This document shows positions 1 through 20,000 of a DNA stretch of 20,000 bases, in pieces. This stretch comes from Cladosporium halotolerans (Eukaryota), in NCBI RefSeq assembly GCF_011745625.1, contig NW_027191507.1, positions 55,565-75,564 on the forward strand, read 5' to 3'. The translations under genes and the position numbers were made by a program. Below the pieces are notes generated by a model. The model was not told the DNA's origin. It was given only the letters and a program-made list of their open reading frames with translations, and ran no database searches. How positions within the stretch are numbered: position 1 is the first letter of the stretch; every line of letters starts with the position of its first letter.

Positions 1-71
1 CAAAGCTCTCTGGATTTCCCAGCCCGCTTCTACTCGCACGAAATCCACACTGGACAGCAGCCATATTTAAC

Positions 72-1301
72 ATGGTCAAAGCCCCCATCCTCCACTTACC
101 TCGAAGCCCCCACATCTATCACATCCCGCTTAAAATCTTGCCGATATTCAATACCAGTCGCCGACCTAGTGCGTACGTCTTTGCGGAAAGGATCAGTCCT
201 TCATTCACGCCTCGGACTCTTCATTTACAGAGTTACCAGAGGCAGATTGATCAACAACAACCAAAGTCCACGTTCTTACCAAGACGGCCAATCCCAAGAC
301 GGGCGCTACATCACACACCCAACAGCGTACATACCGAAGTCATGTCCCAAACAGTCACCGTCGACAGCATGCATGATTCAGCCACTGGTACGTGGCAATA
401 CATTGTCGCCGATCCGCACACCCTTGACGCCGTCATCATCGACCCAGTCTTAGATTACGACATTTCAACACATACCATCAGCACCCACACCGCCGATGGC
501 CTCAAGTCTTTGATTGAAGACAAGGGTTACAAAATCATCAGGATCCTCGAGACACATGCGCACGCAGACCATCTGACAGCCGCCTCATACTTGCAAACCG
601 TCCTAGAGCGGGACCATGGTTCTAAGCCGCCTATCTGCATTGGAAAGCGGATCCGTGAGGTGCAGCGCGTGTTCGGACAGAGATACGGTGTTTACGACTC
701 CGAGCTGAATGCGGCGTTCGATCAGCTCATGGATGACGATGAGGAGTTTTGTATTGGCCAGCTAAAAGCCAAAACAATTCATCTTCCGGGCCACACACCA
801 GATCACGTCGGTTACCTCGTCGAAGGTAAGCAATGTCAGCAGCAAAACAAACGACTTTGGAATTTGCTAATACAAGGCCTCGCAGACAACATCTTTTGCG
901 GCGATTCGGTGTTCAACGCCGACCTAGGCACCGCGCGCTGCGACTTTCCCGGCGGCAGTGCAAAAGATTTATACCACTCGACTCGCAAGTTGCTGAGCCT
1001 GCCCGACAACTACAAGATTTGGACCGGCCATGACTACCCGTCTAACGGCCGGATGTGTCCAGTCCCGTACATGAGCGTGGCTGACCAGAAGCAGCGCAAT
1101 CGCTACCTTTCAGACATTGTATCGGAGCAGGATTTTCTGCACATGCGCACCCAACGTGATGCACAACTGAAGGAGCCGAAAATGCTACACCCGTCGTTGC
1201 AAATCAATATTCGCGGAGGACGGCTACCCGCTCCGATGCCATCTGGTGAACGAACCTTAACATTTCCTATTCGACTGGAGACCGAGCACTGGGGAGTTTG
1301 A
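72..1301 (+). CDS. Persulfide (sulfur) dioxygenase-like metallo-beta-lactamase-fold protein (ETHE1/Blh/SdoA family); exons 72-825 and 886-1301; alternative start at ATG 342
   Basis: Motifs TWQYIVAD..DPVLDYD, ILETHAHADH (HxHxDH), PGHTPDH, GDSVF, GTARCDFPGG, GHDYP and PSLQINIRGGRLP. Removing the in-frame 60-nt intron joins VGYLVE-DNIFCGDS. Length is 389 aa from ATG72 or 299 aa from ATG342. The N-terminal extension is R/S/P-rich and acid-poor. Confidence 0.92.
   Translation: MVKAPILHLPRSPHIYHIPLKILPIFNTSRRPSAYVFAERISPSFTPRTLHLQSYQRQIDQQQPKSTFLPRRPIPRRALHHTPNSVHTEVMSQTVTVDSMHDSATGTWQYIVADPHTLDAVIIDPVLDYDISTHTISTHTADGLKSLIEDKGYKIIRILETHAHADHLTAASYLQTVLERDHGSKPPICIGKRIREVQRVFGQRYGVYDSELNAAFDQLMDDDEEFCIGQLKAKTIHLPGHTPDHVGYLVEGKQCQQQNKRLWNLLIQGLADNIFCGDSVFNADLGTARCDFPGGSAKDLYHSTRKLLSLPDNYKIWTGHDYPSNGRMCPVPYMSVADQKQRNRYLSDIVSEQDFLHMRTQRDAQLKEPKMLHPSLQINIRGGRLPAPMPSGERTLTFPIRLETEHWGV
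826..885 (+). other. 60-nt in-frame spliceosomal intron in the dioxygenase gene
   Basis: GTAAGC donor at 826, GCTAAT branch site at 866-871, CAG acceptor at 883-885. The read-through peptide GKQCQQQNKRLWNLLIQGLA interrupts the conserved motif. Confidence 0.9.
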
Positions 1302-1537
1302 ATAGCATCGCAAGTTTTGCCATTTCAACAATATGCGCATAGCCAGCATTTATCCATCAACTAGCAATGAACACTGTATGAGTATCACCAACTTCATAAT
1401 TGTGCGCCATGCTTGTCTTTTGCCACTGGGAGAAGTTGTTCTGAACTGTTAAGAATGAACTCTCGGGAAACATGCCACAAAGGAAGGAACATAGTGTAAT
1501 TTGATCTGCAGTAGTCAACAAAGATAATAGTATTTGA

Positions 1538-2532
1538 TCACAACGACAGCCACGACCCTAGGCGAGGTTTCCAACCACCGCCTGCATGCGGATCTGTCTG
1601 GTCCAATCGCCACAACGTGGTCTGCACTCGCAAATCTGCGAGAAATTCTGCTTCTGTGGATTTTGCGTGCTTATTGAGAGCCGCACATTCGGCGACAGAG
1701 TCGCGCGGCTTAGATGAGGTCGACGGGCTACCATCTCCCTGCTCTCGCCAGACGCGGGTGTTGGCAGGGAGGGACAAGACCCGTTGCATAGAGTTCCAAG
1801 CGTCACGATGGTGTGATGAGTCTTTCGACGGATCATCGGCAGCGCGGAAAGCGACGCTCTCGAGGTCTGCATGCGCCAAGTCCTCTCTCAGAGTCGCGAT
1901 TGAGTGTGCGCCAAAAACATCGTTGCCCACTACATAAGCGCGGCGATGGGGTTTACCAAAGCCTGGCATGTGCATGCATTCCAGAGAGAGCCAGCCCAAA
2001 ATGATTTCGCCATCATTAAGGCCAGCGCGGAATGTTGTCTAGAATGAGCTACTAGCACCGTATTTGCGCTGCCACAAAAGGTCGAGGCCAGAGACGGTAG
2101 CTTCGTTACAGAGCTGCGGTGCATATCCTGCATTCTGAGATACCAAGCGGCGGATAGGCAGTGAGGGTTCGCAACATGTGTCTCCAGGATGTAGTCGACA
2201 ATAGAGCTGCGCTCTTTCATTACAGTAATGATGGCGTCGGCGGCGCTTGTTGACATGGCAGCCGGGTCAGCACAGGTCAGCACAGCGGTCGCGGACGGGA
2301 TCGAGCACTACACAGTGCATTGTAGTAGCATCAGCTACAATGTATTGCCATGTGTCTGTAGATGCTGCGTATACGTTATGGACAACCGACGAAGTATCGA
2401 AGGCCGCGGTCGGCAATTCTGAAGGTACGCCGGATGTCGTCAGCTTGGAGAAATGGTCGAACAACAAGACTTGATAAGCCTTTTGGCCGTGGATGAGGGG
2501 TATACAAAGGTCTTGATCAGGCCCAGAATCAT
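1538..2532 (-). pseudogene. Disrupted, catalytically degenerate paralog of the persulfide dioxygenase (start uncertain, ATG 2532 or upstream)
   Basis: Pieces across frames align to gene 1: TDTWQYIVADATTMHCVVLDPVRD; YILETHVANPHCLSAAWYL; GYAPQLCNEATVSGLDLLWQRKYG; HMPGFGKPHRRAYVVGNDVFGAHS; NSMQRVLSLPANTRVW; SVAECAALNKH..EAEFL. Lesions are a 10-bp tandem duplication (2265-2284), a frameshift at ~2128 and an in-frame TAG at 2041-2039. Confidence 0.85.
2265..2284. repeat. 10-bp tandem duplication GGTCAGCACA x2 causing a frameshift in the paralog
   Basis: Seen directly. Removing one copy restores ...DRCADPAAMSTSAAD... Confidence 0.9.
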
Positions 2533-2927
2533 TTGCAAGAAATGAATTTTGTCGCGTGATGTGAAGGGGGAAGAGAAAACGACGAGGAGACGGGAGCGAT
2601 GCAGAATGAAGAGTACAAACATTGACGAGCGAGCCCCCGCGTGCATGTAGTCGCCGATGTTTCCGAGTCCCCGGCCACTCGAGTCCGTGCTTCATGATAT
2701 TGATCGGTATAGCTCCCTCCCGGGACCCATTGCAAATCGTTGCGTTGACGGAAGATTCCATAATTGAACTTCAAGACGAATGTATCTGTTGGCCCCGTAC
2801 GCCTTTCTCGCTTAGTCATGTTCATGCACCAGGTTGCATAGGCTGCACACACATAGATGCGAGAAGGGAGGTCACGAGTACGTACGGCGATTTAGTTAGA
2901 TATCCAGCGTTACTATACAGATAGCTG

Positions 2928-4760
2928 CTAGAGTATGTTGTTTGAAAAAAAATTACTTGACATTTCATCTGTCAAAAAAAGATCGAACCAAAATGGGTTA
3001 TTGCCCATGCTGTCGCTGTCGGCCATGGCACTGTCTCGGAAAGAAGTAGCGTGAGGCGACAAGGCATGCGTCGAGAAAATGGTCTCGGCAACGACTTTGA
3101 GACAACGCGCTGAATTTTGAGCGAGCGTGTATCGCTCACCTAGCCTTTGCAGTGCACCGAGCATCAGAACGACTCTGTCTCTATGCTGTTGGAGGCAGTC
3201 TAGCCCGCCACGGGGTACATGGATGGATCCTGCCGCGAGTTGAATAACGCATCCTAACACCAGGCCACAAATGAAAAAGGGCGAATTTCTGTCTAAACGC
3301 CATGGCACAGTAGCGAGGTTCGCCAAATCCTTTGAAGCGGCGATAGCTTTGACAGTGTGGTGTCTGGAAGTAGGCGCCAATTGTATATAGCCGTTCGCAC
3401 AGGCGATGTCTTTTGCAGACGGCACCGTGTCGGGCAGGTCGCTCCTGGGGAAATGAAGGAAGATGGTAGCGCACGCAATGATGCAGCGTGCTTCGAAAAG
3501 CATCAAATCGACATCTCCCGAAGGACCAACGACGTCTCTATATAAGAACGGGAGATTGTAATCCCAACCTGCAAGCGCGTTATTTAGTGCCTGGATGTTG
3601 TCAGGAAGAGCATCGTCCTGGGAAGCAATAGTCAGAACTCGGCTGACAAGCGGATCGCATCTATGCGAAAGCACAAAGTTGAGAAGCTGGCTTGCGGCTC
3701 CGGTGAAAAAACTCGATTCTCAAACGCTCGGAGTATAGGAGGGCTTGGATCACATTCACCTGCTTCATAGGGCCTGGGCACATGGTAGAAAGGGGAGCGT
3801 CTTTGCGCAGGCGGTTTGGAAAATCGGACGGCGGTGTATCGCCGCGAAATAGATGTCGACGGTGTACAGCTCCCACCATGTCCTTCGGAGACTCTCTTCC
3901 ACCAAAGAGGAACAAGCTGAATTTTCTCGCGCGAAGGTCGGCTCCTGCATGCCCAAATCCAACACGATGCTGGCAGCACGAGTGACACACGCGGCGGCCT
4001 CTGTGGGCTGCTGACGGGCGTGAAAAATGATAGCGTACAAAACCAGTGCTTGGACCCTAGAGGGCTTCTGCTCGTGAGGCTCCAACATGGCAGAAGAAAC
4101 TGCCTCTTGGAGCCCTAAGTCTCCAGGCATGGACGTCGCATAGTGCTGTCCAGCGAAGCATACGACCAGATCGAGGTAGTGCGGATACTGTTGCGCCGCG
4201 TAAAAAGGCCTAGGCACAAGGAAGGGATGTGCGGCAAAGAAATGGATATAGAAGAGGTTGAGCGGGCGGTCGTGGTCGGAAGGATTGAGTGCCCACGTCG
4301 ACGGCACGGCGGGAGTTAAGGATGGCAAAGGCAGTTGTGGATTGCTGAGGCATCCTGGGACAGTGGATGTTGACGAACAAGAAGCGGCAAGGGCCGGACA
4401 GGCGGCGAGGGCGGTATGGGAGGTGTTGCTGCTGGCGGACCGTGCAGATGCGGCTGTGGGCGGCGTCGGTGGCGCGGTGGTGTCTGCAGCGGGACCAGCT
4501 CCTGCCGCAGCAGGCAAAGGTCGGTGATTGCGAGGTCGATGTGGAGAAGCATTTGCATGTGCCGGATCGCCTCGCCTGCCGCGGCGGCCAAGTCCACGGC
4601 GGGAAGCGGTGTAAGAGCAGGCAACAGCGTCGACAAGGCAGCGGCCACAGGTGGGCGACGCGCCGTCGCACTTGAGATGTTTGCGTCGACACCCATCACA
4701 CGCCAGCGGCGCCGGGCGAGCGGTGGCGTCAGAGTTGGCAGCGGCGGTGGCGGTGGCCAT
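2928..4760 (-). pseudogene. Zn(II)2Cys6 transcription factor with fungal middle-homology region, interrupted by two frameshifts (~3768 and ~3650); alternative ATG at 4787
   Basis: ACDGCRRKHLKCDGASPTCGRCLVDAVAC binuclear cluster, LNLFYIHFFAAHPFL and EESLRRTWWELYTVD. The protein continues LPCAQAL / YEAGECDPSPP..FENRVF..SFSTLCFRIDAIR / LVSRVLTIAS only by switching frames. TGA at 3767-3765 ends the first frame. About 610 aa if repaired. Confidence 0.85.
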
Positions 4761-6091
4761 GAAGGAGAAGATATCGATAAATTGCATGTCCAGCCTTTGA
4801 GAACTCCAGCTTGTCGCCGGTCTTGTGTTGTGAGAGGACAGCCCTGAGCAAGAATTCGGCGACTGGGACTCGGCGACTACAAGTCTCCACAAGCGGTGGC
4901 GTCAGCTCATCGCCCGTTGAGGAACAGACCCCGAGAAAGATCGCCGACAGCAACCTTCAGTCCCGAAGACGCCGGATGGCTAAGATCAATCAATTTACAT
5001 CTCGTGCTTCAGCTCCTGCAACTCCCGCACTCGCGTCGCAGCAACTAATTACCTCTTGGGAGCGCACACATACCATCGAGCCTCCAAACCAAGCCACGCA
5101 TCATCCCTCGCGAAAATGTGCAAAAAGGCAACCTGTGACACGTGCGGTCGGTCTCTCCTACCTACTCTTCACTCCGCCCGATTCTAACGCCTTTTGTGTC
5201 GCAGGCAAGCGATCCTGGTGGGGATGCGGCAATGTATTACTGCTGCCAACTCTCTACGCGACAAGCATAAACTAACGTGTCGGCAAGCACATCCCAAGCA
5301 TCATGGATTCCGTGCAGGAGCAAGACAGATGCAAATGCGGGCCCAGGGTCTTTGCGGAGGGCAAGGAGTATCCTCCGAAGGCCGCTCAAGCCGATTGACT
5401 GTAAGGAGGAGGATAGAACGTTTGGGAGGCTCCGATAGAGCATCTACGTACCACTTTCCCACCCACGTCTGTTGCCATTTGGAGTCCAGATCATACCTGT
5501 ACACCCTTCAATCGTCTCCTTCATAGACATGGAACCAACCTTGGCTATCGCCATCAAATCACCAGCGTTTCGAATCATGCTTGCACAAGCTCTGCTAGAT
5601 GAAGCGAACCAACCCAATCCTTCATTCTGTTCTATCGCAGGTCAGGTTTGCTCGTCGCAGAATTCACATACGCGCGGCAACTGGCCGGAATGTTACACAG
5701 CTAGTCCGGACACACACTCTTGGAGCCATTAGCCATTAGGAATGGTCGGGCGACAATGAGTGCACACTGAACTTTCGCCTTACCTCGGCGAGCTCAACAT
5801 TAATATTCTGTAATCGCCGTCGAAGTCGGCGATCAAACCCAAGGTCTTGACCTTGCCTTAGGGAGGTAGACTGTGACATGGGTCGTGCAAGACAAGGTCT
5901 TCGATTACAAAGATGGTTCGCCACCGGCACTATATGAACGACGAGTTCCGTCCGCAGCGTTTCCAAGTCCCCCTATCCGCCACAGAAACCGTAACATTAA
6001 CAAAGCCAGCGCGAATTGTGCCTGTTAGAAACGCCGCCACTACCGAGCCGTTGTCACAGCGTGTTGACGCGATCTTCCTAAATCATTCAAC

Positions 6092-7165
6092 ATGCTATCC
6101 GGATCCATATCCGCCGCTTGCACAGGAGCAATCTTCGGCGCCTCACTCACAGCATCGGGTGTCTATCTCCCTTTTGTGATAATCGGTCAATTCCGGCTGG
6201 CAGACTTCCACATGTTCCACGTCTTTGCAACAGCCATGGGCTCAAGCGCGTAAGTAGCAAGTCAAACCGTCGCCACGAGCTCGCAAACGTTGTTTGCGCG
6301 TGCGCTAATTTTTCACTGCTCCAGTATCGTCATGCTCGCATTGGATAAACTCGACATCATCAAGCGGCCGGTACGAATGAACTCGACGCTAGATCTTTGG
6401 TCACCATACGACGCAAATCTGGCTGGCGGCGTTCTAGTCGGAATCGGAATGGCGCTGTCAGGGGCATGTCCTGGCACGGTCCTGGTTCAACTTGTCCAAG
6501 GAATACCATCTGCAAAGGCCACAGCCTCCGGAGCCTTGCTAGGTGCTGCACTTTACATATGGTTCAAAGAGCGGCGCAAGAAGGCTCAACTTGGGGCTGA
6601 AGGGGAACGAAACACCTGCAGAAAGACGATATCTGACGTGTCCAAAGTCCCTGAATTTGCCGTATACTCATTATTTGGGGTGGCGATCGCGGTGATTTTG
6701 CGATTTACACGAGCTGGGAGCGAGCAATCTTTGGCATTGCCCGTGGCCGGTGGCTTTCTGATCGGCTGCGCGCAAGCCGTGTCGCTGCTACTCACTCGCA
6801 GCCCTCTCGGTGTCTCGACCGCCTACGAACACCTTAGCCGACACATCCTCAATGCATTGCGCGGAGAGATTGGAGCAAGGCCAAGCCTTCCCTCGAAACC
6901 CATCATCTTTTCCCTTGGTATCGTTGCCGGAAGCATTGCCTTGCTTGCGAGCAATCCCAGCTTCGGCAACTCAGCACACGAGTCTGCTGTACCGGCATGG
7001 CAGGCTTTCATTGGGGGTGTTGTCATGACTTTCGGCGCCAGGCTGGGGGATGGCTGCACTTCTGGACATGGATTGTCTGGCCTCAGTGCCATGTCTGCTT
7101 CAAGTCTTGTGACAGTGGCTGCGATGTTTGGTGCTGGTATCTCGACCAGGGCGTTGATGGCATGA
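6092..7165 (+). CDS. YeeE/YedE (thiosulfate/sulfur-compound transporter, TsuA/PmpAB-like) integral membrane protein; exons 6092-6249 and 6325-7165, 332 aa
   Basis: ATG 6092 opens MLSGSISAACTGAIFGASLTASGVY... The intron is 6250-6324 (GTAAGT, GCTAAT at 6304, CAG). Family motifs GGVLVGIGMALSGACPGT and GGVVMTFGARLGDGCTSGHGLSG are present, with many Gly-rich hydrophobic segments. The spliced frame is intact. Confidence 0.9.
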
Positions 7166-7847
7166 TGCAGAAGAGGCTACCGATGCAAGATCATCGAACC
7201 CTTCGATTGCAGAACTCATCTCCTCCTTCCAGACACTTGCGCGGCACTCGACATTACATGGCCAGAAGCCAAACACATATGCAGTCTTGCTGGTTTCCAG
7301 CAGTCTCAGATCGAGGACAGTGAAGACATTCGCATGTGGGTGGGTCCGCTACTTAACTCTTGCAAGTATACTTATTTCTTCTCGTGCAGTCACCGAGCCA
7401 ATTTCATGACCTCCGTCTCTTGATATGCTCCATGACTCGATGTGGTCCTTGCTCTAAAGGTACTCCTTACCCTAACGAGGATCGCCTCTTCACATGCGCT
7501 GTGCCCAAATTTTCTCCAATCTTTATCACAGCTTCGCCCCGCAAGTCACTTGTATATCTCAATCCTCAGCTTCCTCTACCCCCTTGAATACTGTGATCGG
7601 GCAACAAGCCAAGAGGCTTCCTGCAATTTCAGACATTCAATACACCATGATGCTGGCCAGACATTGATACAATGTCCTGCAATTGTTCCTTTCGCATTTG
7701 GCAGGAAGCATTTATCCAGTAGCTCAACAATAAATCTTGAGCCTTCCTCAGAACTCTAGCGTGATTGTGTTCCACTCCTGATTCTGTGGCCATGTTGTGA
7801 TGGTGTAAGAGATCTTTGATTTTGAGTGAACTATTGAAGAGGCAAAA

Positions 7848-9171
7848 TCATCTACATACACAAGTGAAGCGGAAAGTATCGTTCGCCTCGAGCCGGAATT
7901 CTTGGCAATTTGCCACCCGTAGCTCGAACGCCATTACTCTTGCTTCGCCCGCGGCGTGCCACTGTACACCACTCCGGGATATCTCCTCACTCACTGCATC
8001 CTCATCGGCTGGTCGCCGTTTCACATTCATGCATTATTGACTCGGGTGGCTGTATGCCATTCGTTCGTTCGCTTGCGACTCGACCTCCTCGGCCTTGCTG
8101 TCGACTTTCGTCGCGCCCGGTCTTTCGATGTGAGTTGCAAAGAGCGCTTTCGCTCTTCTGGTAGCCCGCTGCTCGACCTCGGCCACGATTGACATTTGTC
8201 GCAGGTTTTCCGAACGTCTGAGACGCGAGGGGTTGTTGCTGCTCGTCACTGAGGACCTTGGGATCGACTTTCATCATACCTGGCCCAGAGATTCGAGTTG
8301 CTCGTGCTGGCTGCATGCTTGCCACTCCTGGTCGGTGCATCGACTTGTATCGTGCCCGGTTTAGACGTGCGTGCCGCGAGGTTTGCCCGCTGCTTATCAA
8401 CCATGACTTGGCCCTTGGGCATTGCCTTGGGATGCTCCTGGTTTAGGTCTGCGACTTGCAAGATTGGCTTTTCTTGGTAGAGTTTGCCTAATCCTCATCG
8501 TCCATGACCTGGGCTTGTAGTCCGGTCTGGGTCTGACCAGTGCAACGCTTGCCTTTTTCCGTGTGGTTGGCCTGCTCTCGTCATCCACCCCTCGGTTTAA
8601 TGCTCGGTCTAGGTCTGACAGGATACAAGGCTTGCGTTTATGTTGCGAGGTTCCATCGGCTTTCATCATCCACGCCTCGGCCTGATGCCCGGTCTGAGTC
8701 TGACAAATGCAAGGCTCGCTGATTTTGGGAGTTAGGTTTGCTTGTTCTCGTCATTCATTCCTTGGCTTGATGCCCAGTCTAGGTCTGACAACTGCAAAGC
8801 TTGCGGGTCCTTCGCGTGGGGTTCGCCTGCTGCTCATCATCCATCGCCTTGGCCTGTCGCCCGGTCTAGGTATGGGAGCTTCAAGGCTTGTCATTTTTGG
8901 TGTGAGGTCCCGGTGGACTCGTGGCAGGGGTGGAGAGCGATTGCTGCATTGCTCGCGGAGCTGGATAAGCGCGGTCTCCCGATTGTCGAGCAAGAGGGAT
9001 TCCTCATCCATGAGTGTCTCGACAGTCAATGCCTTTACCCGGTCGGCCTGTGCTGTTTGCTTGTCAGTGTGCGGCCGGTGTGAGCTCAGAATGATTTGGT
9101 GGGCGTACCCATCCTGCGGTCTTGGGAATTGGAGTTGTGGGATCTCGTAAAGGGCGCGTTCTTGGCGCCAT
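7848..9171 (-). pseudogene. Degenerate gene of unknown function with an internal repeat array
   Basis: ATG 9171 (MAPRTRPLRDPTTPIPKTAGW) and a plausible intron 9108-9048 (GTACGC..CTGAC..CAG) splice in frame to ADRVKALTVETLMDEESLLLDNRE. ORFs 8034-8249 and 7848-8030 share a frame, separated by a single TAA. The repeat region is frameshifted. No recognisable family. Confidence 0.4.
8430..8892. repeat. Degenerate tandem array, six units of ~82-87 bp
   Basis: The core CGGTCTAGGTCTGAC...TGCAAGGCTTGC recurs at 8439, 8523, 8605, 8690, 8775 and 8862 (spacings 84, 82, 85, 85, 87). A TC(A/G)TC(A/C)(T/A)-like ..TCATCCA..CCTTGGCC motif lies between the cores. Confidence 0.8.
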
Positions 9172-9432
9172 CTGGGGTGTAGTCTAGTCAGCTGGTATTT
9201 GCGATGCGAAGGGAATTAGGAGGGGATCCGGGGGGGGGTGGGAAAGTGGTGTGAAGCGGCAAGAAAGTCGCGAAGTCAGCTTGCTTGTGCACTTTGATAT
9301 TGCTACTGCTTACGGGAGGTGCGGGATCTACGCCAAGTACCGCAATATGCAAGCTGGGAAGGTGCGTTCCGTGTAACTCACTTCACTTTCCGCCAGTTAA
9401 TCTGAAGGTCGTCAGAGCTTCCATCCGTTTTC

Positions 9433-9605
9433 TTTGTCAGACTGGCAGTCTGTCTCGTTCTTCGGATATAAGGGCCGGGTGAGGTGTTGGCTAATCTCTC
9501 GGGTCTTGAGTGCAAGGCGACATTCGTTGTAGTGTTAGGCAGCGTTTAGGGACGGCTCATACGGTCTTCGTGCATGGCGTGAATGAGAATCATCATCATC
9601 ATCAT
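9433..9605 (+). repeat. Left arm of a long inverted repeat (partner 19828-20000)
   Basis: Ungapped manual alignment to the reverse complement of 19828-20000 gives about 17 mismatches in 173 nt (~90%). The inner end falls in a (CAT)n run. Confidence 0.92.
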
Positions 9606-9883
9606 CGACCGGGGGGTCGGCATAACTTACAGGTAAGGGACGGCAGGTCACGCGTCAACATAGATCCGAGGCTAGAACTAACGCGAGCGCAACACGAGTG
9701 CCCCCGCGTCTTGCGTTTTGAGGTGTTCACGCGTGAGACATGTTGATTTATATACAGCGCATGAGCAGAAAATCACGAATATTTATTTCGAATGGTGAAG
9801 AACACCACTTGTGATCTCTCAGTGTCATTTATGAAGTTCATATCTCGCCTCGAACTGATGGCCGATGTAAGCTCACTCGCAAG

Positions 9884-12225
9884 TTGGGGCCTCGAAGTGG
9901 CGACGCCCGTTATTACAGACAACGGTCGTGGAGTCTGGCACACAGCAGCCCGTACACAGCAGATAGTACATTCGCATCTGACAGCGCGATCGGCCACGAA
10001 GACGGATTGGAGATCGCTGCAACGAACGCTAACGAATTGTTTCACTACGATCCGCATTACAGAGTGCTAGTCTGCCGGTATCATGGGTATGCCGTCAGGA
10101 ATCTGACAATGCATCTTAGGCTGCAACACAAAGTCCGCAGCTCTCAGAGGCCAGCAATAGAGAAGGATTTCCGGGATTGTGAACTACTGGAGCCGGCACA
10201 GGTCTCAATACCGCCGCCGCTGCACGCACCGCTTAACTGGCTCGTTGCGCCGACCCGCGGATATCAGTGCGACGAAGCCGGATATACCAAGATCTTGAAG
10301 AGCCGAGATGGAATCAGGAAGCACTGTTATAAGGAGCATGCATAGAGGTCGACCGCCGACGATCCGGAACACTGGCACGTACAAACGATATTTCAATCCA
10401 AAGCACATCGTCGGTCTTCCGTCGTCGATTATCACGACAAGGTCGTACGGGAACTAGAGCAGTCGACGAAAGGCATTAGCCCGCAGAATCAGCAAATTCT
10501 AGAGTAGTGGGATCGTCGCCTAGAAGAGCAAGAAGAGGTATCGCAGCTCGCAGAAGCCGTAGTAGCAAAAACCGATCATATACGGTGGTTCAGATGCAAT
10601 AAATGGCCGTATCATCTGGCAGAGAGCAATTTGCGGCAGTTGAGTCGAGCGTGTCGCATGCCGAAACGGGATGAAGAAACGCTTAGAGACGTACTACCGA
10701 AGAAGGCGGAAGCTTTAGTTGAGGAGTGTGTGAAAGGATTGCCGATACTTAGGCACGTTATCAGACGGTGGTTACGAAGCGTAAAAGCATCCGAGCCGGA
10801 CGTACGGCCGTTGGCAAAACTGCAGAACGAAGACAGTCAGAAGCGGTATGCCGTCTATATAACCCGATTCATTTGCTATACGCTACGAAGATGGAAAAGC
10901 CGCGAAGAAGTCGAAAATGCGGGCTATAGAGGGCCAGTGGAGGTGAAGGGGTTGGCGAGAATGAAGATGAGGATGAAGACGAAGATGAGGTCGGGGACGG
11001 GATTGAAGATGATGTCGAAGACGCAATAACGGTCAATCTGACAGGCGGACCGGCAAGTGGCGGCATACGAGAGGCCGACACGATGAAAGAAGCTCGAAGG
11101 CTACATCCGTGGCCGAACGGCTTACACGCGATCGTTGGTCGGCTTTGGAGAGCACTATCTCCGTCGTGTTACTTAGAGTCACCGGAAATGGTCATACTGT
11201 AACTCTTCAGGCACGTTCTATTTAGCACGTAGGAGTTAATGTCTTCGAACGCCCGTTACTGCATTTATAGCTATACTAGGCCTCGTTAAAGACATATATA
11301 GGCTACGAGAAGGGAACGATTTTTCGTTTATACTAGCGGGAATCGTCTACTATTATCGAGTGCTAGGCGTTAAGATTATTCTCCTAAAGACGTTTCGTAG
11401 GGGAGAGACGGCGGAAGACGACGAACGCTTTCTTAAGTGCGACTTAAGTATCTAGCTAACGGAGTATTTAGTCCGATAGCGGAAATTATTAGCTTATTAT
11501 TATATAGTCGATACTATACGTTTAATTACGCGAACGCCGGTACGATATCTTAATCCCTAGACGCTAGTATAATTATATATAGAGGGTAGAATATCCCGCT
11601 CGCGAGATTTAAGAAGCTTATCTACGTAGTAGTAATAGAGGCCGAGAATATACTATAATAAGAGGTACTCTAGTAGGTCGATACTAAGCGATTTAAACTC
11701 CCTATAGATATATTAAGGGACGACGTAACGTATAATTATAGAGACTAATCGTTTCTATTCGTTTCTAAATAATACGCGTAATAGACTCGATATACGTATA
11801 TAGGTACCCGTATAGATATTAGCGTACGTTAACGGTAGAAAGCTTCTATAGGGAGAGCGCTAGTAACGTTAGGAGATACGTAAGTATCTACGATAGATAA
11901 AGTATTTTCGAGAACTACTATTACTCTACGTATACTAGACTAGAAGATAGCTAGTATAAGGTACCTAGATATCCGTCCGGTCTAAAAACGGTTATATATA
12001 GGACCGAAACGTTTTTACGATATATAGGTATATAGCGGTCGTAATACGATATTATAAAAGCGTATCGTAGTACGATTAACTAAAGGTCGTCTCGCGTTTT
12101 CTCGCGTAGCGAGTCGGATAGCTAATAGCTAGGTATTTAGTATACGTACGTCCGCTATAAGAGTTACTTTCTCTTTAATCGTAGCGATAAATATATTATA
12201 CCCGTAGTAACTATATTTATAATAG
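9884..12225 (+). pseudogene. DUF3505 (OrsD-like) N-terminus plus the conserved middle domain of fungal telomere-linked/RecQ-helicase-associated mobile genes; RIP-mutated and 3'-truncated
   Basis: ELFHYDPHYRVLVCRYHGYAVRNL..HLRLQH and GYQC..IRKHCYKEH Zn-finger-like motifs, then IRRWLRS..RPLAKLQNEDSQKRY and an acidic tract. RIP-damaged reads follow: PLLH.IAILG, YLANG.FSP, DRNVF..AVV.RYYKS....KVV.RFL..RVG.L...YLVYVRP. Stops are TAG/TAA at expected W/Q codons. No helicase motifs were seen. Confidence 0.75.
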
Positions 12226-14034
12226 GCGTTTAAAGGAACCTCCTTTATTTGGATTTCTTATAGTACTATACGGCGGTTAGAAAAGCGGGGATCGGTACTA
12301 ACGTTTTGGGAATATATTTAGATCGTAGATAGGCGAGAAGGTATATTATAATAGTTTCGGTAGTAATCGCTCTAGAATATAATCGTCGAGCTAGCCTAGT
12401 TAGTAGTCGGGTTATACTTCTTAAGCTAAGGTATACTAAGTACGATTAGGTAGTATACTAAGCGGGTAAGAAAAAGGGGTACTCCCTTTTCTATATAGTA
12501 TCTGGTTTCTAGGTCGTAGCGGATATAGTAATAGATAATCTAAGCGTCTTCGCTCTTATCGGCGAAGCTATATAGCTTAAACGGACGGCGGAGGGTATAG
12601 ATTAGTAGACGATACTCTTTTACCTACGTTTAATCTATAAAGGCGTCTCCCTTATAACTAGTATCGAGGAGGGAATAAGTTTTAATAGAATAGTATTCGG
12701 AGGTTATAGTAATAAATAACTTTAGTAAACGGGCTCGTTAATACTTAGCTTTAACGGGTATCTTAAAAATCGATATTCTTAAGATCTTAATAAACGGGTA
12801 GTATTACGGGTTAGGATAGGGTATAGTAACGGGTATAGAAGTACGTAATAATAATCTACGTTATCCTAGCGCCTAGAGACGACTTTAGCTAGGCTTATTT
12901 CGTTTTCCGAATACGACGTAGGCGAGGAGTATTAGTCGCGAGCGATATTATATAGGCTAATTAGAGAAGGCGATAATTCGGACTCCTCTTATGAATTAAT
13001 AAATTAATAGATAGATAGTACACTAATTAATTATTATCTTAGAGACTATATAACTTAATCAAAAATTATACTAATTACTTATACCTTTAGGTTTAGCTAA
13101 TTCTAGACTTTAAATCGATAGTATACTTTATAATATTAAAACGTCGATATTTATTAGTCTATTTAAGTAGCTTATAGAATCTTCTTAGAAAACTTTTATA
13201 ATACTATATCTTAAGCGCTTTTTATTTAAAAGGCTACTATTTATATTTTCCTTTAAATTAACTATATCGATATTAGTACTATAGAATATAGACTCGGATA
13301 AAATATCTATACTATAAGTCCGATAGTATAGTATTATAGTTATACTAGATATAGTAAGGCTTACTTAGGCTTTATATTAGATCGCTCTATATAAGTTTTT
13401 ATCTTCTTAGTATTATAGGGAATAATTAATATAGTTATCTAAAGCGTTCTTCTAATTAGCTACGCTCTATATACTACTACTAAGTACCTAATAGACTATA
13501 GTTAAAAATACTACTATACTTAGTAGTAGCTAGATAGATACTTATAGAAGGTAATAGACCTTAGATAGTTACTTTTCTTTAGATTATCTTTTATAGTACG
13601 TTAGTATAGATATATAGTAGCCTCCGTAGGTAATAATAATATAAAAAGTTACTTAAATCTCTTCTCTATCCTACTTAGTAAAGTATTAACCTAATAATAT
13701 CTTTAGGTTTATATTTATCCTATCTCCTATCTACCTTCTATACTAGTAGATAGTTCTAACCTTAGCCTACTTTACTACTACCCTACTACTAAAAGGTAGT
13801 TATCTAGATAGCCTCTAGCTTTATATAAGTTTCCTATAAGAGAACCGTTATATATTTAGTATAGCCTCTATAGATAAATAACTACCTTTAGATACGATAG
13901 CCTAAATCGAACTCTTAAATAAACGCGATTCCTAAAAATTAAACTTTAGTTTAACCTCTATTAGCTTTAGTAAATTTCTACTAAGAGTAAAGATTATAAT
14001 TATATAGAGTATATACGTAAAGTTATATAGTAAA

Positions 14035-14245
14035 TATTATCTATAAAAATATAGTGGTAAGTTCCTATAAAAGGTAATAAAGGATTATCTTAAAGACTAA
14101 TCGCTACTTTATAAGCTAATCCTCTACGCTTTATAGGTAAACTATATATAGCTACTAAGCGCCCCTTAGGCGCGGCGTTATAGGTTACGTAATTAGGTTA
14201 CGTAGCCTAGGTCCTAACTTTACTTCCTTATACTCTTCTATAATA
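14035..14245 (-). repeat. Putative 3' LTR (~210 bp), preceded on the minus strand by a polypurine tract at 14260-14246
   Basis: The minus strand reads AGGAGAGGAGGTAAT then TATTATAG (RIP form of TGTTA...). The plus-strand end reads TATTAT at 14035. A duplicated GGTTACGTA motif (RIP form of GGTCACGTG) and a TATA-like run lie inside. Boundaries are inferred without a second copy. Confidence 0.45.
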
Positions 14246-14569
14246 ATTACCTCCTCTCCTAGATAGATATCCTAGCTACCTAATAGGTACTTTTATAGCG
14301 CCTCTTTATCGCCTTAAATACGCTTCGTACTTCTATACGTTTCCGCCTAGTTACTAGGTAGTATTATATAGTTACTTAGAGTCCTTAACTAGCGCTCCTT
14401 CCTTAGGTAGGTAAATATTATTATTAGGGGTAATAAAGGTAGGTATAATAGTATCGCGAGTTCTCCTTACTAGTACTTCTCTTTCTCTCCCTATATATAT
14501 ATATATACTAAGCGCCTCCCCTCCGCGCCGCCTTTAGCTTATTAGCGCCGCGCCTACTTACCGTATTAT

Positions 14570-15409
14570 CTACGTAAGCTTCTTTTTCTATCTATAGTAG
14601 TAGTATACGCGCTACTATACCTATTTATAATAAGTATATTCTATACCTTAACGACGACCTTACTAGTAAGTTTATAAAACGCGCTCCGCGCGCGTAGCGC
14701 TAGTACTTCCCTTACTCTAAGCTAGCTAACTATCTTTATAGCTAACCTATACGATAGTATTTTTAGTCTTATAGCTAAAAAGTACTCCCGCTACGCCTTA
14801 TCCTATAAGGCCTATATAGCGGTTAAGCCGCCCTACTTTCCTACGCTTATATACGCCGTATACGCTTATAAGGCGTATACGCGTACCTTAGATAACGACG
14901 ATAACGACCTAGCGGCCCGCGTATAGGCCGCTATTAACGCTAGCGAGGCCGTCTATAAGGACTTACGGTCTTTTAACTATAACCGTAATAAGGTCGCTAG
15001 CGACTACCCTACGCTACGTAAGGTACGTACTACTACTACGCCGGTAGATAGTAATAGTATCCTCTTACTAAAGGTATAGAGCTTACGCCGCGGCGTCCTA
15101 GCGTTTATTAAAGTCGGTAAGACTATAAGTACTTTCCTTACTCTCTCTTCGCTTCTTAAGCGCTTTATATACTTACTACTTTCGTAGATCGTTTAGGATC
15201 GCCTAATCCCTAATAAGGCCTCTAAGGCTATTAACGCTATTAACGAGGCTCTTAGGCCGGACGCCCTAATAGGGGCCTTCCGGCGTAAGTCCTTATTACT
15301 ACTACTACGCCGTCGCTATACCTACGCTTTATTAGAGGGCGAGGATAAAGAGGATAAGGATAAGAATAAGGGAAGAGAGGAGGGTAGTAAGAAGGAGATA
15401 GAAGAGTAA
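14570..15409 (+). pseudogene. Antisense accessory gene inside the retrotransposon: three exons (..14665, 14742-15124, 15188-15409), inferred six-Cys motif and acidic tail; start not resolved
   Basis: Intron 14666-14741 has GTAAGT, GCTAAC at 14725 and TAG. Intron 15125-15187 has ATAAGT (RIP form of GTAAGT) and TAG. The spliced frame is continuous except for RIP-type TAG/TAA codons and ends EGEDKEDKDKNKGREEGSKKEIEE-TAA (15407-15409). Confidence 0.65.
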
Positions 15410-15589
15410 TACTTTCTATCTCTCTCGCCTACTACGCGCCTTTATAGCGCCTTTATTTTTTATATAGCGTATCTACGCCTTAGCTACGCCGCGCTTTTAG
15501 CGGTTTTCCTCTTTTTTCATTTTCCTATTAGGCCTTAGCCTATAAAAAATAAATAAGCGATTTTCCCTTTTTTTATCTTTATTTTCGTC

Positions 15590-18500
15590 TTCTTACTTAC
15601 GTTTCGCCTATATATTATATACGCTTATTAGCTATTTCGTATTTTTATAGTTCTCTATAGGCTTCTAGCTTAAGTACTCCTCTAGCTAGCCTTTCTACTA
15701 TACTAAATACTATAGCTATTCTTTTCTTTTACGTAAATCTTTAATTACCTCTACTCTCTATTTATCTACTACCTCTATAAAGAATATAAGATACGTTAGT
15801 TCTTCGCCTACTCGCTACTACTATAGCTTTAATAGCGAGATATAGAATACGTTATAGATCTTATAGGAGCTTAGGAGTACTAGTCGGTACGCCTATAAGC
15901 CGACTACGTCTTTTGCTTAAAACGGTCTAATATACTAAGCCCTTAGCTTCCTTTTTACGCTTAGTAGATATAGATTTTTCGTTAGTAGAAGTACCTTCTC
16001 CCTAATCTTAAAGTATATTAGCTTTAAACGCTAGTTCTAATACTTCTTCTATATCTCTTAAGCGTCTTACTAACGTAACGCTAGCGTCTTATACGTTTTA
16101 TATAATTATCTTATACGCTTTATAGCTACTTATACCTTCTCCTCCTATAGTTTATCCTAAATTAGCGCCGTTCTAATCTCTAGCGACTAGCTATAAAGGA
16201 GCTCGAAAGGGCTTATATAAGTCGCCTAGTATACGCCGTTATTTGCCGCGAACTCCGCCTACGCTAGTATATCTAGCTATATCTCCTACTTTTCTAAGTA
16301 ATAGTAACGTAGGTATTACTTAAGCGTTTAGTTTATCCGCTTAGTCTACCTATCTATCTAAGGATAAAACGCTATACTTAGTCTATATTTTACCCTCGCT
16401 TTTGAAGCGAAGTTACTCTAATACTAGCTTATAAAGAGCGATTCCCTATAAAAAAGGATTCCTTTTAGTATATTAAATCTTTAGACGATATTATCTATTA
16501 GTAGCTTCGTAAGCTCTACGCTATCGTAGCGCTTAGTAGTCGCTATATATACGTTTATCTTTATATATCGATCGATAATTACTAGTATTATATCTACTAC
16601 CTAGTTCGCTATCTTTCCTAGTAGAAGATTAGTAATAAAGTCTAGCGTAATTTCCTCCTAAGGATAGGAGGGTAGTACTAATACCTACGCCTTACTATAG
16701 GGCCGGTATTACCGCGACTTTACTACTTAATATATCTAGTAAGATACTACGCGCTCTATAATATCCTTCCTTAGGGACGGCTACTAGTACTTACGGTATA
16801 GTAATACCTTCGTTTTATCTCGACTAAAGTACCCTATAAGCGGGTTATCGTAGTAGATTCGCATAAGCTCTATTCGCGCCGCGCTATCGTCGGGTATAAA
16901 TAGCGCTCCCTTATAATACTAAAGGGCGTTATATTTTACCTACGCTTATACGTCCTTTACGCGTCGACTACTTTCCTATAGCTCCGCGAGTTTATACTAG
17001 CTTCTACTCTATAAAATCTATAATACCTCTATTAGGCCGCGGTCCGGATCGTTAAACGGATCCTTATATTATACCGCTAAGTTAACGACTCGCCTTATAA
17101 TTAAGATACGGTCCTATATAGTAGAGTTACTAGCGTTATACTAGAGACTCTCTTACGCGTACGCTCTATATACTAGGGATACTACGGCCTCCTCTTTCTC
17201 CTATACTATTAGCTTCTTCTATAAGGTCGGGAGTAAGTTATAAGGCGCCTACTCTTTACTATTATAGACTAGACGCCTTAATAGGACGTCTACTAGATTC
17301 GACGGGCCGCTTTAGTATTCGATTACGAAATTAAAGGAAGCTAGGAACGTTACCTACCTAGCTTAATAGCTATTAAATTATTTTATACCTATAAAACCCC
17401 TTAGGTTATTATAGTCTATAAGTACTTATATCCTATACGTAGCGCCTTAAAGGTACTAGTAAGACTACTTAAATCCTTCTACGATCGCGAGTAACTTACT
17501 ATCGTACGTCTTATAGTTATACTTAGCCGGATTTAACTTTCTTAACTAGAAAGTAATAGGGTACTAAGTCGTATACTATTTACTAGCGGGGAGTAGTTAT
17601 AATAGTATCGCGACGATTACGAACTACGAGGCGTCCGTCTCTATCTAGAGTTTCGCCTTAGGCTTACAATACCTAAGGATAGGCGCTTCTATAAAGGCCG
17701 CTTTTACCTCCTAAAACGCCTCCTCTTCGCTTATACCCTACTAGAGCGGACCCGACTTTTTACCCTATTTCGCCTCTTTCGTAAGCGCTATTAGCGGCGC
17801 TACGATCTTAGAGTAGTTCTTAATAAATCTTCGATAGAAATTAGTAAATCCTAAGGATACCTATACGTCCTAGAAGCTCTACGGTATCGGCTATTCTTTA
17901 ATAGTAGCTACCCGGCGCCTATCTATTAAGACGCTAGTTATACCTACGATATACCCTAGGAACTCTACTTCTATCGTAAAGAAATAGTATTTCTTTTAGT
18001 TCGTATAGAGGGCGAGTTTCCGGAGTCTCTTTAGTACTATACCTAGGTCTCGCTAATACTACTCTTTCGTATCGCTATAGATAAGGATATTATCTAGGTA
18101 GACTACGTAGTAAATATCGATAAGCCCTACTATAGCCCGATTAATATATACTTAAAACGTTACCGGAGTATTAGTTAGCCTAAAAGGTATTACCTTATAT
18201 TTAAAGTAGCCGTAGCGTATACGAAACGCCGTCTTCTACTTATCGCCGCGCTTAATCGGGATTCTATAGTAAGTATCCTTAAGGTCTAATACTAAGAAGT
18301 ATATAGCTCGCCTAAGCCTATTTAGCGTTTTACTAATTAGAGGTAAGAGATACCGATTCTTCCTTATAATAGCGTTTAGCCTTTAGTAATCTATATAGAG
18401 ACGTATAAAACTATCTTTCTTTAGTATAAAGAGGATAGGCGCCCCTACTTTACTAGCGCTCCGCTAGATCTACCCGTTCTTAAGCGCCTACTTAAGGTAC

Positions 18501-19100
18501 TAGTAAAGGACCTCTAACTCTCTTATAGATAGGTTATAGAGAAGCTAGAAGGGTAGCTTCTACCTTAGCTCTAAGTTAATCGTATACTCTATACCTTTAG
18601 GGAGTAGGAGGCCTACTATATCCCCTTTAGTAAAGACGTCGCTAAATTACTAGATCTCTACTAGTAGCTCTATAGCCTCTAGTAGCGAATCCGTCCTTAT
18701 AGTATAGACGTAGGGGGCTCCCTTAAAGTCTTACTAGAACGCGCGTATATTCCCGTACGCGTATCGCCGGTATCTTACCTAGTTATATAAATTACTATAG
18801 GTCTCTCTTACTATCTACGGCAACTTTATACTTCCGTCGCTATAGCTAGCTAAAGAGGACCTTAGCCCCCTTTAACTTATAGCTAAAGAATATATCGTCT
18901 ATTAGGTACTATATATCTATAGAGTCTACGATTTATATATATAGCTTATATATACTATAGTATAGCCCCTTCTCGCCTCTAAATTCCTCTATACTTAGTA
19001 GAGGTACTTCGACCTTCTATAGGTTATATTATAACGTTAGGCGCTATAAGACGATATTTATCTCTACTACGTTATCTAGGATATAAGTAGCTTCTATACG
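15590..19100 (-). pseudogene. pol: pol polyprotein (protease, RT, RNase H, integrase, chromodomain), RIP-inactivated
   Basis: Protease-like ILDNVVEINIV at ~19050-19085. RT: GAPILFILKKD..RLYIDY, KTAFRIRYGYFKYKVIPF.LTNTP and VYLDNILIYS (YLDD at 18100-18089). RNase H: IETDAS, RKLNPAKYNYKTYDSKLLAIVE. Integrase: ITLDFIT, SIAFYP*IDR*TKRIN. Chromodomain: YLV**KG*LEEYLS*KP at ~15620-15760. Confidence 0.92.
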
Positions 19101-19189
19101 CTATCCTTACGAGTCGACTTCTCCGCGTAGGGTCTTTATAGGCTAGGAGCTTCCCGCCGTCTATATAGACTCCTAGCGAACCGCCCTAA

Positions 19190-19660
19190 CGCTAGCTAGT
19201 TAAGCTTAGGTTAGTACCTATAACGGCTTCGCTTAGGGCGCGATAGCGGTTACCTTTTATATCGCTATCTACTTAGCTCCTACCTACTTATAGTAGTTAG
19301 GATAGCTACTCCTAATATAGCCCTACTCCCGATAGCCGTAGTATTTAACGCCCTTCTACGGTTAAATCTTCCCGGCGGCTCCTTTAGGGGTAGCCTACGC
19401 TACTAGTATATTACTTAGGCGCGTAGAGAATAAATCCCTTTTCTAGAACCTAGGTAGTAGTACCTCGCCGGCGTCTTTCTTAAGGGGCCGGTTATTATAG
19501 GGGAGTAACGTCTATACTAAGGCTCTATATAGTATTAAATAAGTTCGATACCGTAAGGAGGAGGTTTACTATTTAAGTCCGCTTAGAAGGAGATAAAGAG
19601 CTAAGGCCGTTCTACTATACGCGGGCCTAGCCCGCGTATACTCCTAGGGCTTACCCTTTT
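19190..19660 (-). pseudogene. gag: gag C-terminal fragment with zinc knuckle
   Basis: 19343-19302 reads Y-Y-G-Y-R-E-*-G-Y-I-R-S-S-Y, the RIP product of C-x2-C-x4-H-x4-C. Confidence 0.75.
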
Positions 19661-19827
19661 ATACTATAATAATGCTTTAAGAAGATACCCTTATAAATAA
19701 TAGTCTTATATTTCTAAAACTTAGATATAATACTATTTATTATTTAAAATTAATAGTAGTAAGCTTTTAGCTTGATTTTACCCTACTAATCTAGTAAATT
19801 ATAAGGTTCACTTTAAACCTACTAATA

Positions 19828-20000
19828 ATGATAATAATGATGATTTTCATTCAGGCTATGCACGGAGACCGTATGAGCCGTCCCTAATCGCTACCTAACA
19901 TTACAACGAAAGTCGCCTTGCACTCATGACCCGAGAGATTAGCCAACACCTCACCCGACCCTCATGTCCGAAGAACGAGACAGTCTGCCAGTCTGGTAAA
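19828..20000 (-). repeat. Right arm of the long inverted repeat (partner 9433-9605); runs off the window edge
   Basis: Its reverse complement matches 9433-9605 at ~90%. It lies just outside the RIP-saturated block. Confidence 0.92.

Follow-up and report, generated by a model that had tools for sequence, protein, structure and literature searches.

We analyzed a stretch of 20,000 nucleotides from the genome of Cladosporium halotolerans (contig NW_027191507.1, positions 55,565 to 75,564; hereafter the window) and found that positions 14605-15409 of its plus strand hold a copy, killed by repeat-induced point mutation (RIP), of a conserved accessory gene that belongs to a chromodomain-bearing Ty3/gypsy retrotransposon lineage of Dothideomycete fungi. 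An earlier note on this DNA had proposed an antisense gene with two introns downstream of the chromodomain of the element, and this proposal was borne out by an alignment with four unmutated copies (L001-L004), by homologous proteins and by a conserved linkage to pol. Intact copies encode ~195-210 residues, which start with an N-terminal six-cysteine module (C-x2-C-x12-C-x10-C-x2-C-x6-C) and continue with an alpha-helical hairpin, a basic PRK(R)R patch, a third helix that contains the near-invariant motif ELQSxRRGxLALVEVGK, and an acidic tail. The antisense gene of the window is a fossil that has lost every one of its six Cys codons, its start codon and one splice donor, and in which three sense codons have become stops. 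The accessory-gene family itself is real, conserved and undescribed, and its function is the part that we infer. The whole explanation, which joins the RIP-killed accessory gene to the mode of action proposed below, appears highly probable to us.

The accessory gene lies in a RIP-saturated block that was delimited by dinucleotide counts to positions 11300-19800, with flanks of normal DNA of ~52% GC. Depletion of CpA/TpG and enrichment of TpA, both limited to the repeat, are evident from a (CA+TG)/(AC+GT) ratio of 0.01-0.04 (12001-19000) and a TA/AT ratio of 1.6-2.3 across the block. Eighteen CA/TG dinucleotides were left in 11361-19773 and none in 14056-15517; thus, codons for Cys, His, Gln, Trp and Met are impossible in the candidate gene in any frame. 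Rewriting by RIP in the block has turned Cys and His codons into Tyr, Gln and Trp codons into stops, and Met into Ile. In addition, the window was compared with a less mutated copy in run X3, for which 40 of 231 differences were listed (the six Tyr sites of the module fall outside those 40). The listed differences included ten adjacent pairs, in 15028-15320, with TA in the window and CG in the run X3 copy (for example, 15028-29, 15034-35, 15124-25, 15300-01 and 15317-20). This suggests that CpG was hit besides CpA, with both strands mutated at one dinucleotide, and hence that Tyr codons here may stem from Arg (CGY) as well.

The plus frame of 14570-15409 contained 7 stops in 280 codons and the five other frames 13-40, and the true pol frame had 113 stops in 1170 codons. 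Among 1536 sliding segments of 280 codons in the six frames of 11500-20000, the median was 27 stops and the first percentile 10, and all segments with eight stops or fewer belonged to the plus frame of 14570, between 14411 and 15670. The spliced frame of the window has 666 nt with three internal stops (14921, 15077 and 15194), and the spacing of its six Tyr codons across the first splice junction, x2-x12-x10-x2-x6, was recovered exactly as the note had given it. It should be noted that neither the spacing of the Tyr codons nor the splice motifs would carry much weight by themselves, because both recur by chance in such DNA. A relaxed form of the six-Tyr pattern had one further chance match in 16998 codons of the block, intron-like GT..CTRAY..YAG patterns occurred five times in 17 kb (both strands), and Tyr accounted for 7-12% of the codons in all frames of the block. 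Such figures would agree with TA-rich RIPed DNA that mimics an open frame, six Tyr codons and splice motifs and was never a gene. However, there were 25 homologs with E-values down to 3.9e-25, Cys codons stood at all six sites in the four unmutated loci, and the synteny with pol was conserved. A chance origin of the frame was rejected, as homology and codon-level alignment refute it, and we give it a vanishingly small probability; it is these two lines of evidence that make the observation solid.

The homology search was carried out with phmmer, using the read-through translation (X at stops) against 1.84 billion representative sequences. It returned 25 matches at E≤1e-3, including six at E≤1e-10, which cover residues 45-192 of the query (the exon 2 part); the best relative was 48% identical. 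Twenty of the 25 were looked up for names. Named relatives were hypothetical proteins of Meristemomyces frigidus, Oleoguttula sp., Friedmanniomyces simplex and Cladosporium inversicolor, and the remaining ones were unnamed metagenome or Logan open reading frames (ORFs). A profile search added 32 matches, none of them named, and the ESM Atlas yielded just unnamed Ascomycota clusters with scores ≤0.90. All six Cys are present in five distinct annotated full-length relatives (P0002, P0011, P0015, P0021 and P0045). Three of these (P0021, P0002 and P0011) share the layout I-C-N-R-C, 12 residues, C, 10 residues, C-x2-C-x6-C, and the first loop is x13 in P0015 and x11 in P0045. Cys 1 and 2 were found in the eight sequences of alignment A4 that span exon 1, and Cys 3-6 were invariant in all 15 domain pieces chosen for alignment A5, which omits P0010 (Tyr at Cys 3) and RIP-like copies. 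Two places ahead of the last Cys, the usual His is replaced by Lys in the sublineage of the window, as seen in the window itself and in P0001, its nearest relative.

Some relatives deserve separate mention. In P0024 (Meristemomyces frigidus, 342 aa), 150 unrelated residues stand at the N-terminus and the first CxxC is missing; the gene model may be a fusion, or the host may have kept a derivative of the accessory gene. P0005 and P0012 are RIP-mutated copies called as ORFs in public assemblies, with Tyr replacing Cys and a composition rich in Asn and Lys. Thus, dead copies of this gene stand in protein databases as real proteins.

The codon-level evidence came from L001-L004, four unmutated copies from one metagenome whose loci are 1-2 kb long. 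The six TAT/TAC codons of the window align to TGC or TGT in all four, and the same spacing is seen in P0021, P0002 and P0011, so that the reading of the six Tyr as former Cys held. A further Tyr at 14804, taken in the note for a former His, aligns to Arg (CGC) instead. The four loci are identical in 349 exon columns; the window departs from them in 148 of these columns, by G>A or C>T in 80 cases. Both introns occur at aligned places in all four loci, with GT..AG ends and a GCTAAC branch site, and the spliced frames are open in each of them (195-203 codons). With intron lengths of 52 and 53 nt, which are not multiples of 3, splicing is needed to obtain the frame. The annotated proteins of the four named species are likewise spliced at both places. 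ORF-called relatives begin with 'MLT', which corresponds to ATG-CTAAC of the intron 1 branch site, and continue after 'VEVGK-x' with 'VS' (GTAAGT or GTGAGT of intron 2). The 'MLT' starts and the 'GK-x-VS' read-through therefore mark the same two junctions independently.

On the basis of these alignments, the following gene model was obtained for the plus strand of the window. Exon 1 (14605-14665, start uncertain) contains the Tyr codons at 14626 and 14635, once Cys 1 and 2. Intron 1 (14666-14741; 76 nt, phase 1) has a GTAAGT donor, a branch site GCTAAC at 14725-14730 and a TAG acceptor, and its sites align with those of L001-L004. Exon 2 (14742-15124), which was supported by phmmer and the alignments, carries the Tyr codons at 14750, 14783, 14792 and 14813 (once Cys 3-6), the helical region and the conserved basic patch; its RIP stops at 14921 and 15077 both align to CAG in the unmutated loci. 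Intron 2 (15125-15187; 63 nt) ends in a TAG acceptor and has the donor ATAAGT in the window. For this donor the note had predicted a G at position 15125, and the run X3 copy indeed shows it (A>G), giving GTAAGT, in line with GTAAGT or GTGAGT at the aligned position of the four loci. Exon 3 (15188-15409; coding part 15188-15406, stop TAA at 15407-15409) was placed by alignment and encodes the conserved motif I-N/D-x-x-L-G-P-D-A and the acidic tail, which the relatives also possess, as had been anticipated. Its in-frame TAG at 15194 aligns to an Arg codon in relatives, and its final TAA at 15407 corresponds to TGA in L001 and L002 and to a TAG aligned 3 nt upstream in L003 and L004. An in-frame stretch of 66 nt at ~15269-15334, encoding an Arg-rich patch, is not found in L001-L004 and is thus a lineage-specific insert. 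As a consequence, the basic patch of the original proposal was supported in part: a conserved PRK(R)R patch exists in exon 2, but the RRKS..RRR segment that had been pointed out sits in the insert missing from L001-L004.

The carrier element was identified from its pol gene, a single frame on the minus strand (15593-19800) with many RIP stops, in which Pfam matches and a collinear alignment support the order protease, reverse transcriptase (RT), RNaseH, integrase, SH3 and chromodomain. When the minus frame from 19999 down to 15401 was translated with X at stops, Pfam matches were obtained for RVT_1 (1.1e-22), RT_RNaseH_2 (4.1e-17), SH3_Tf2-1 (2.5e-07) and Integrase_H2C2 (7.2e-04). Eight other translations scanned beside the pol frame gave zero Pfam matches, and six read-through frames of 11201-15700 matched no Pfam family. 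The position of the pol stop (15593-15595) follows from that in the aligned L001 sequence. The chromodomain remnant (15617-15760, minus strand), whose Trp codons are now stops, had no Pfam match itself and was recognized on visual inspection and from its alignment with the pol ORFs of L001, L002 and L004, which match Pfam Chromo at 1e-12 to 9e-14. Thus, the RT-RNaseH-integrase order followed by a C-terminal chromodomain, as in chromoviruses, was found by Pfam in the relatives and, for the chromodomain, by alignment in the window.

Linkage of the accessory gene to pol could be judged in three of the four loci with enough flank, L003 being too short. In L001, L002 and L004, an opposite-strand ORF with SH3_Tf2-1 and Chromo (in L004 also rve) ends 118-127 nt beyond the gene, so that the gene is located downstream of pol and on the opposite strand in these loci as in the window. 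The tail-to-tail gap between the stops is 183 nt in the window and 126 nt in L001, and collinearity with these loci extends over 14380-15700 of the window, a span that takes in 200 nt ahead of the gene start. Because the two groups of loci share just ~50% of the residues of the accessory protein, the linkage to pol must be old. The gene was also present in most copies seen, although the sample is small: it is intact in all four loci, contigs of runs X2-X4 cover its region, and P0021 is encoded by an identical sequence on four contigs of one Cladosporium inversicolor genome. These observations bear on the alternative that the gene belongs to the host or to another element, adjoining or captured by some copies, and is not a standing part of the retrotransposon. 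Such a gene would fit the undefined LTR (long terminal repeat) boundaries in the window and P0024, which may be a host or fused form. However, the tail-to-tail arrangement in the window and in all three informative loci across groups whose accessory proteins are ~50% identical, the identical copies within one genome and the further RIPed copies P0005 and P0012 argue against it, and we consider it very unlikely.

In all six pairs of loci, the ratio of nonsynonymous to synonymous substitution rates (dN/dS) of the accessory gene was below 1 (0.30-0.75), and the neighboring integrase-chromodomain segment gave 0.07-0.13 in three pairs. The accessory protein thus appears to be constrained yet fast-evolving, as accessory proteins often are. 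Its fast evolution would also suit an alternative in which the antisense RNA is the product that matters, pairing with the genomic RNA and feeding small-RNA control, with the ORF being secondary; this idea has been raised for antisense additional ORFs (aORFs) in general (excerpts of PMC7264820). On the other hand, the ORFs are intact in all four loci, the Cys residues are invariant and ELQSxRRG is near-invariant, dN/dS stays below 1, and conserved introns restore the frame. A locus whose main product is the antisense RNA therefore seems improbable to us, and a protein-coding accessory gene is the preferred reading.

Several observations weigh against this reading or against parts of it. Translation of the window copy has an uncertain start, with candidates in ATA at 14605 or 14617 (once ATG) and in a lost start near 14566. 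Aligned intron positions are 64-72% conserved and exon positions 68-70%, so that the introns are no less conserved than the exons, and the constraint on the accessory gene is much weaker than that on pol. Named relatives are limited to four species (three genera plus Oleoguttula sp.), all of them Dothideomycetes, and in their genomes the gene may have been annotated by computer prediction alone. A repeat search of 11000-20000 for an LTR pair found just short chance-level repeats; with the polypurine tract and LTR unplaced, the location of the gene inside the element rests on the conserved linkage to pol and not on element boundaries. Finally, the six-cysteine module is modeled with moderate confidence and matched no fold or Pfam family in the searches made. 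In an AlphaFold2 run on P0021 with 36 sequences, its predicted local distance difference test score (pLDDT) was 58-68 in the full model and 69 when folded alone (58-75 overall). For the model of the Cys domain, VIA-align gave no match at Z≥2 and Foldseek returned six rows, all with E≥6. Zn_clus was found in none of 11 full-length relatives at E≤1, and these proteins matched no other Pfam family.

The remainder of the protein was modeled more firmly. Helices at residues 59-80 and 85-113 of P0021 had pLDDT values of 86-96, in agreement with the helical middle that had been proposed; a third helix was also predicted, and the acidic tail was disordered. Foldseek found no match at E≤0.001 for the full model, and a wide VIA-align search retrieved only generic helical hairpins with Z≤8.8, a range that is common for helical models. 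A sequence search of PDB with the family profile gave no match at E≤10.

The note had further described the module as a variant Zn2Cys6 cluster, and this claim was left without sequence support. The canonical Zn2Cys6 spacing is C-x2-C-x6-C-x5-12-C-x2-C-x6-8-C, and Gal4-type factors combine a basic Cys motif with a subsequent helical region and an acidic tail. The present family shares with the fungal Zn2Cys6 family (PF00172) its six conserved Cys and its fungal distribution, and the second half of the module (C-x10-C-x2-C-x6-C) fits the canonical spacing. Moreover, the basic K/R-C-x-R-C motif, the helical region that follows and the acidic tail recall the Gal4-type layout, and one of 15 domain pieces touched Zn_clus (E 0.022, below the cut-off). 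All these features would be expected if the module were a true, diverged Gal4-type cluster and the protein a DNA-binding transcription factor. In contrast, the first loop is twice as long as the canonical one (x12, or x11 and x13 in two gene models, instead of x6). The same Pfam library that failed to detect Zn_clus in the full-length relatives scored the Zn_clus domain of a host gene in the window (3765-4901) at 2e-09. In an hhalign comparison with this host domain the module reached a probability of 0.25%, and there was no hidden Markov model, profile, PDB or fold match. A Gal4-type factor is therefore an unlikely identity for this protein, and by sequence comparison the module is not a detectable Zn2Cys6 member. 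Candidate arrangements of the module include a diverged binuclear cluster and two sites, such as C1,C2 plus C4,C5.

With respect to the mode of action, the accessory gene would have a promoter of its own for antisense transcription, located in or beside the 3' LTR. Its introns would survive retrotransposition, since the genomic RNA has the reverse orientation and is never spliced there. By analogy with antisense accessory proteins elsewhere, the protein would most likely bind metal via its six cysteines, be imported into the nucleus and influence the expression or integration of its own element in trans. A more specific version of this analogy, namely that fungal chromoviruses encode their own zinc-binding nuclear regulator, a counterpart of HBZ that drives element expression or counters silencing, is offered tentatively, as a possibility with less than even chances; the module would then represent either a novel metal-binding fold or a very distant branch of Zn2Cys6. 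HBZ, encoded by human T-cell leukemia virus 1 (HTLV-1), is made from a spliced transcript, has an activation domain and acts as a regulator in the nucleus. The layout is alike in that a minus-strand gene is carried by a retroelement; the antisense promoter in the 3' LTR is a feature of HBZ (excerpts of PMC7264820). However, HTLV-1 is an animal retrovirus, and HBZ is a bZIP protein that lacks the Cys module and has no sequence relation to the present family.

The literature already contains an example of an antisense gene carried by a chromodomain-bearing gypsy element of a fungus. This gene, brtn, is said to have been described by Zhao et al. in 2011 (Virology 417:248). According to excerpts of four papers, Boty-like Ty3/gypsy elements of Botrytis cinerea carry brtn as an extra antisense gene after pol and ahead of the 3' LTR, and relatives have been reported in Sclerotinia and Monilinia (PMC7264820, PMC8365987, PMC4227169, PMC5987419). 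As far as these excerpts go, brtn resembles the present gene in being an antisense extra gene of a fungal gypsy element with a chromodomain in pol, whereas its hosts are Leotiomycetes and not Dothideomycetes; the two were compared by description only. None of the 20 phmmer matches looked up and none of the 32 profile matches was a protein named BRTN, and a text match for 'brtn' in PMC9409477 proved to be the name of an author and was rejected. Antisense aORFs between pol and the 3' LTR are also known in plant elements (excerpts of PMC7264820), where they are kept in most copies, with some located in the nucleus or predicted to be DNA-binding, and at least gene23 of Grande has its own promoter (excerpts of PMC7264820, PMC11963269). 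In these excerpts, position and orientation equal those of the present gene, whereas the elements are from plants and mostly from non-chromovirus lineages, and the domains are TRP28 or SMC, in contrast with the absence of Pfam matches here. The word 'intron' does not occur in PMC7264820 or PMC11963269. A full-text literature search retrieved no paper on the present six-Cys family, and, set against the published text on brtn that we consulted, what is new here is this family of Dothideomycete chromoviruses.

Several other features of the window were noted. A pure purine run on the sense strand of the element (14476-14492, minus strand) is a candidate polypurine tract, although it was assigned without an LTR pair. 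The adjacent (TA)8 run at 14492-14507 aligns to a CA repeat in L001 and L002 and resembles a microsatellite rewritten by RIP. From 11300 to 14400, ~3 kb of RIP-saturated DNA has no Pfam match in any frame and may contain the 3' LTR and other repeat debris; within it, a 70-nt segment (14093-14162) is shared with a high-depth contig of run X1, whose sequence differs from the window on either side. RIP ends abruptly near 19800, ~1.4 kb upstream of the RT domain. Thus, the element is 5' truncated or interrupted, and gag and the 5' LTR are not in the window. Host genes occupy the ordinary fungal DNA (~52% GC) of positions 1-11300; they include genes for a metallo-beta-lactamase-fold protein (3-1301, plus strand), the canonical Zn2Cys6/Fungal_trans transcription factor used above as a control (3765-4901, minus strand), a sulphur-transport protein (6254-7165, plus strand) and an OrsD-like protein (9815-10345, plus strand). 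The presence of the Zn2Cys6 factor and the OrsD-like gene next to the RIP block hints at a secondary-metabolite neighborhood.

LTR retrotransposons have few accessory genes, whose roles are obscure even in plants. Within the portions of the literature searched, brtn is the only fungal precedent, and the present family is a second, well-defined fungal one. The 'hypothetical proteins' of this family in Dothideomycetes are transposon genes, and their annotation should say so. A RIP-aware reading, in which Tyr may stand for Cys and a stop for Gln or Trp, recovered a gene that is not seen by an ORF finder or a Pfam scan. Engineered retrotransposition reporters use an antisense-intron arrangement, and the conserved antisense introns of the accessory gene are a natural version of it. 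Finally, the clear protein architecture, together with intact and apparently recent copies in culturable non-model fungi, makes the function of an antisense retrotransposon gene testable.

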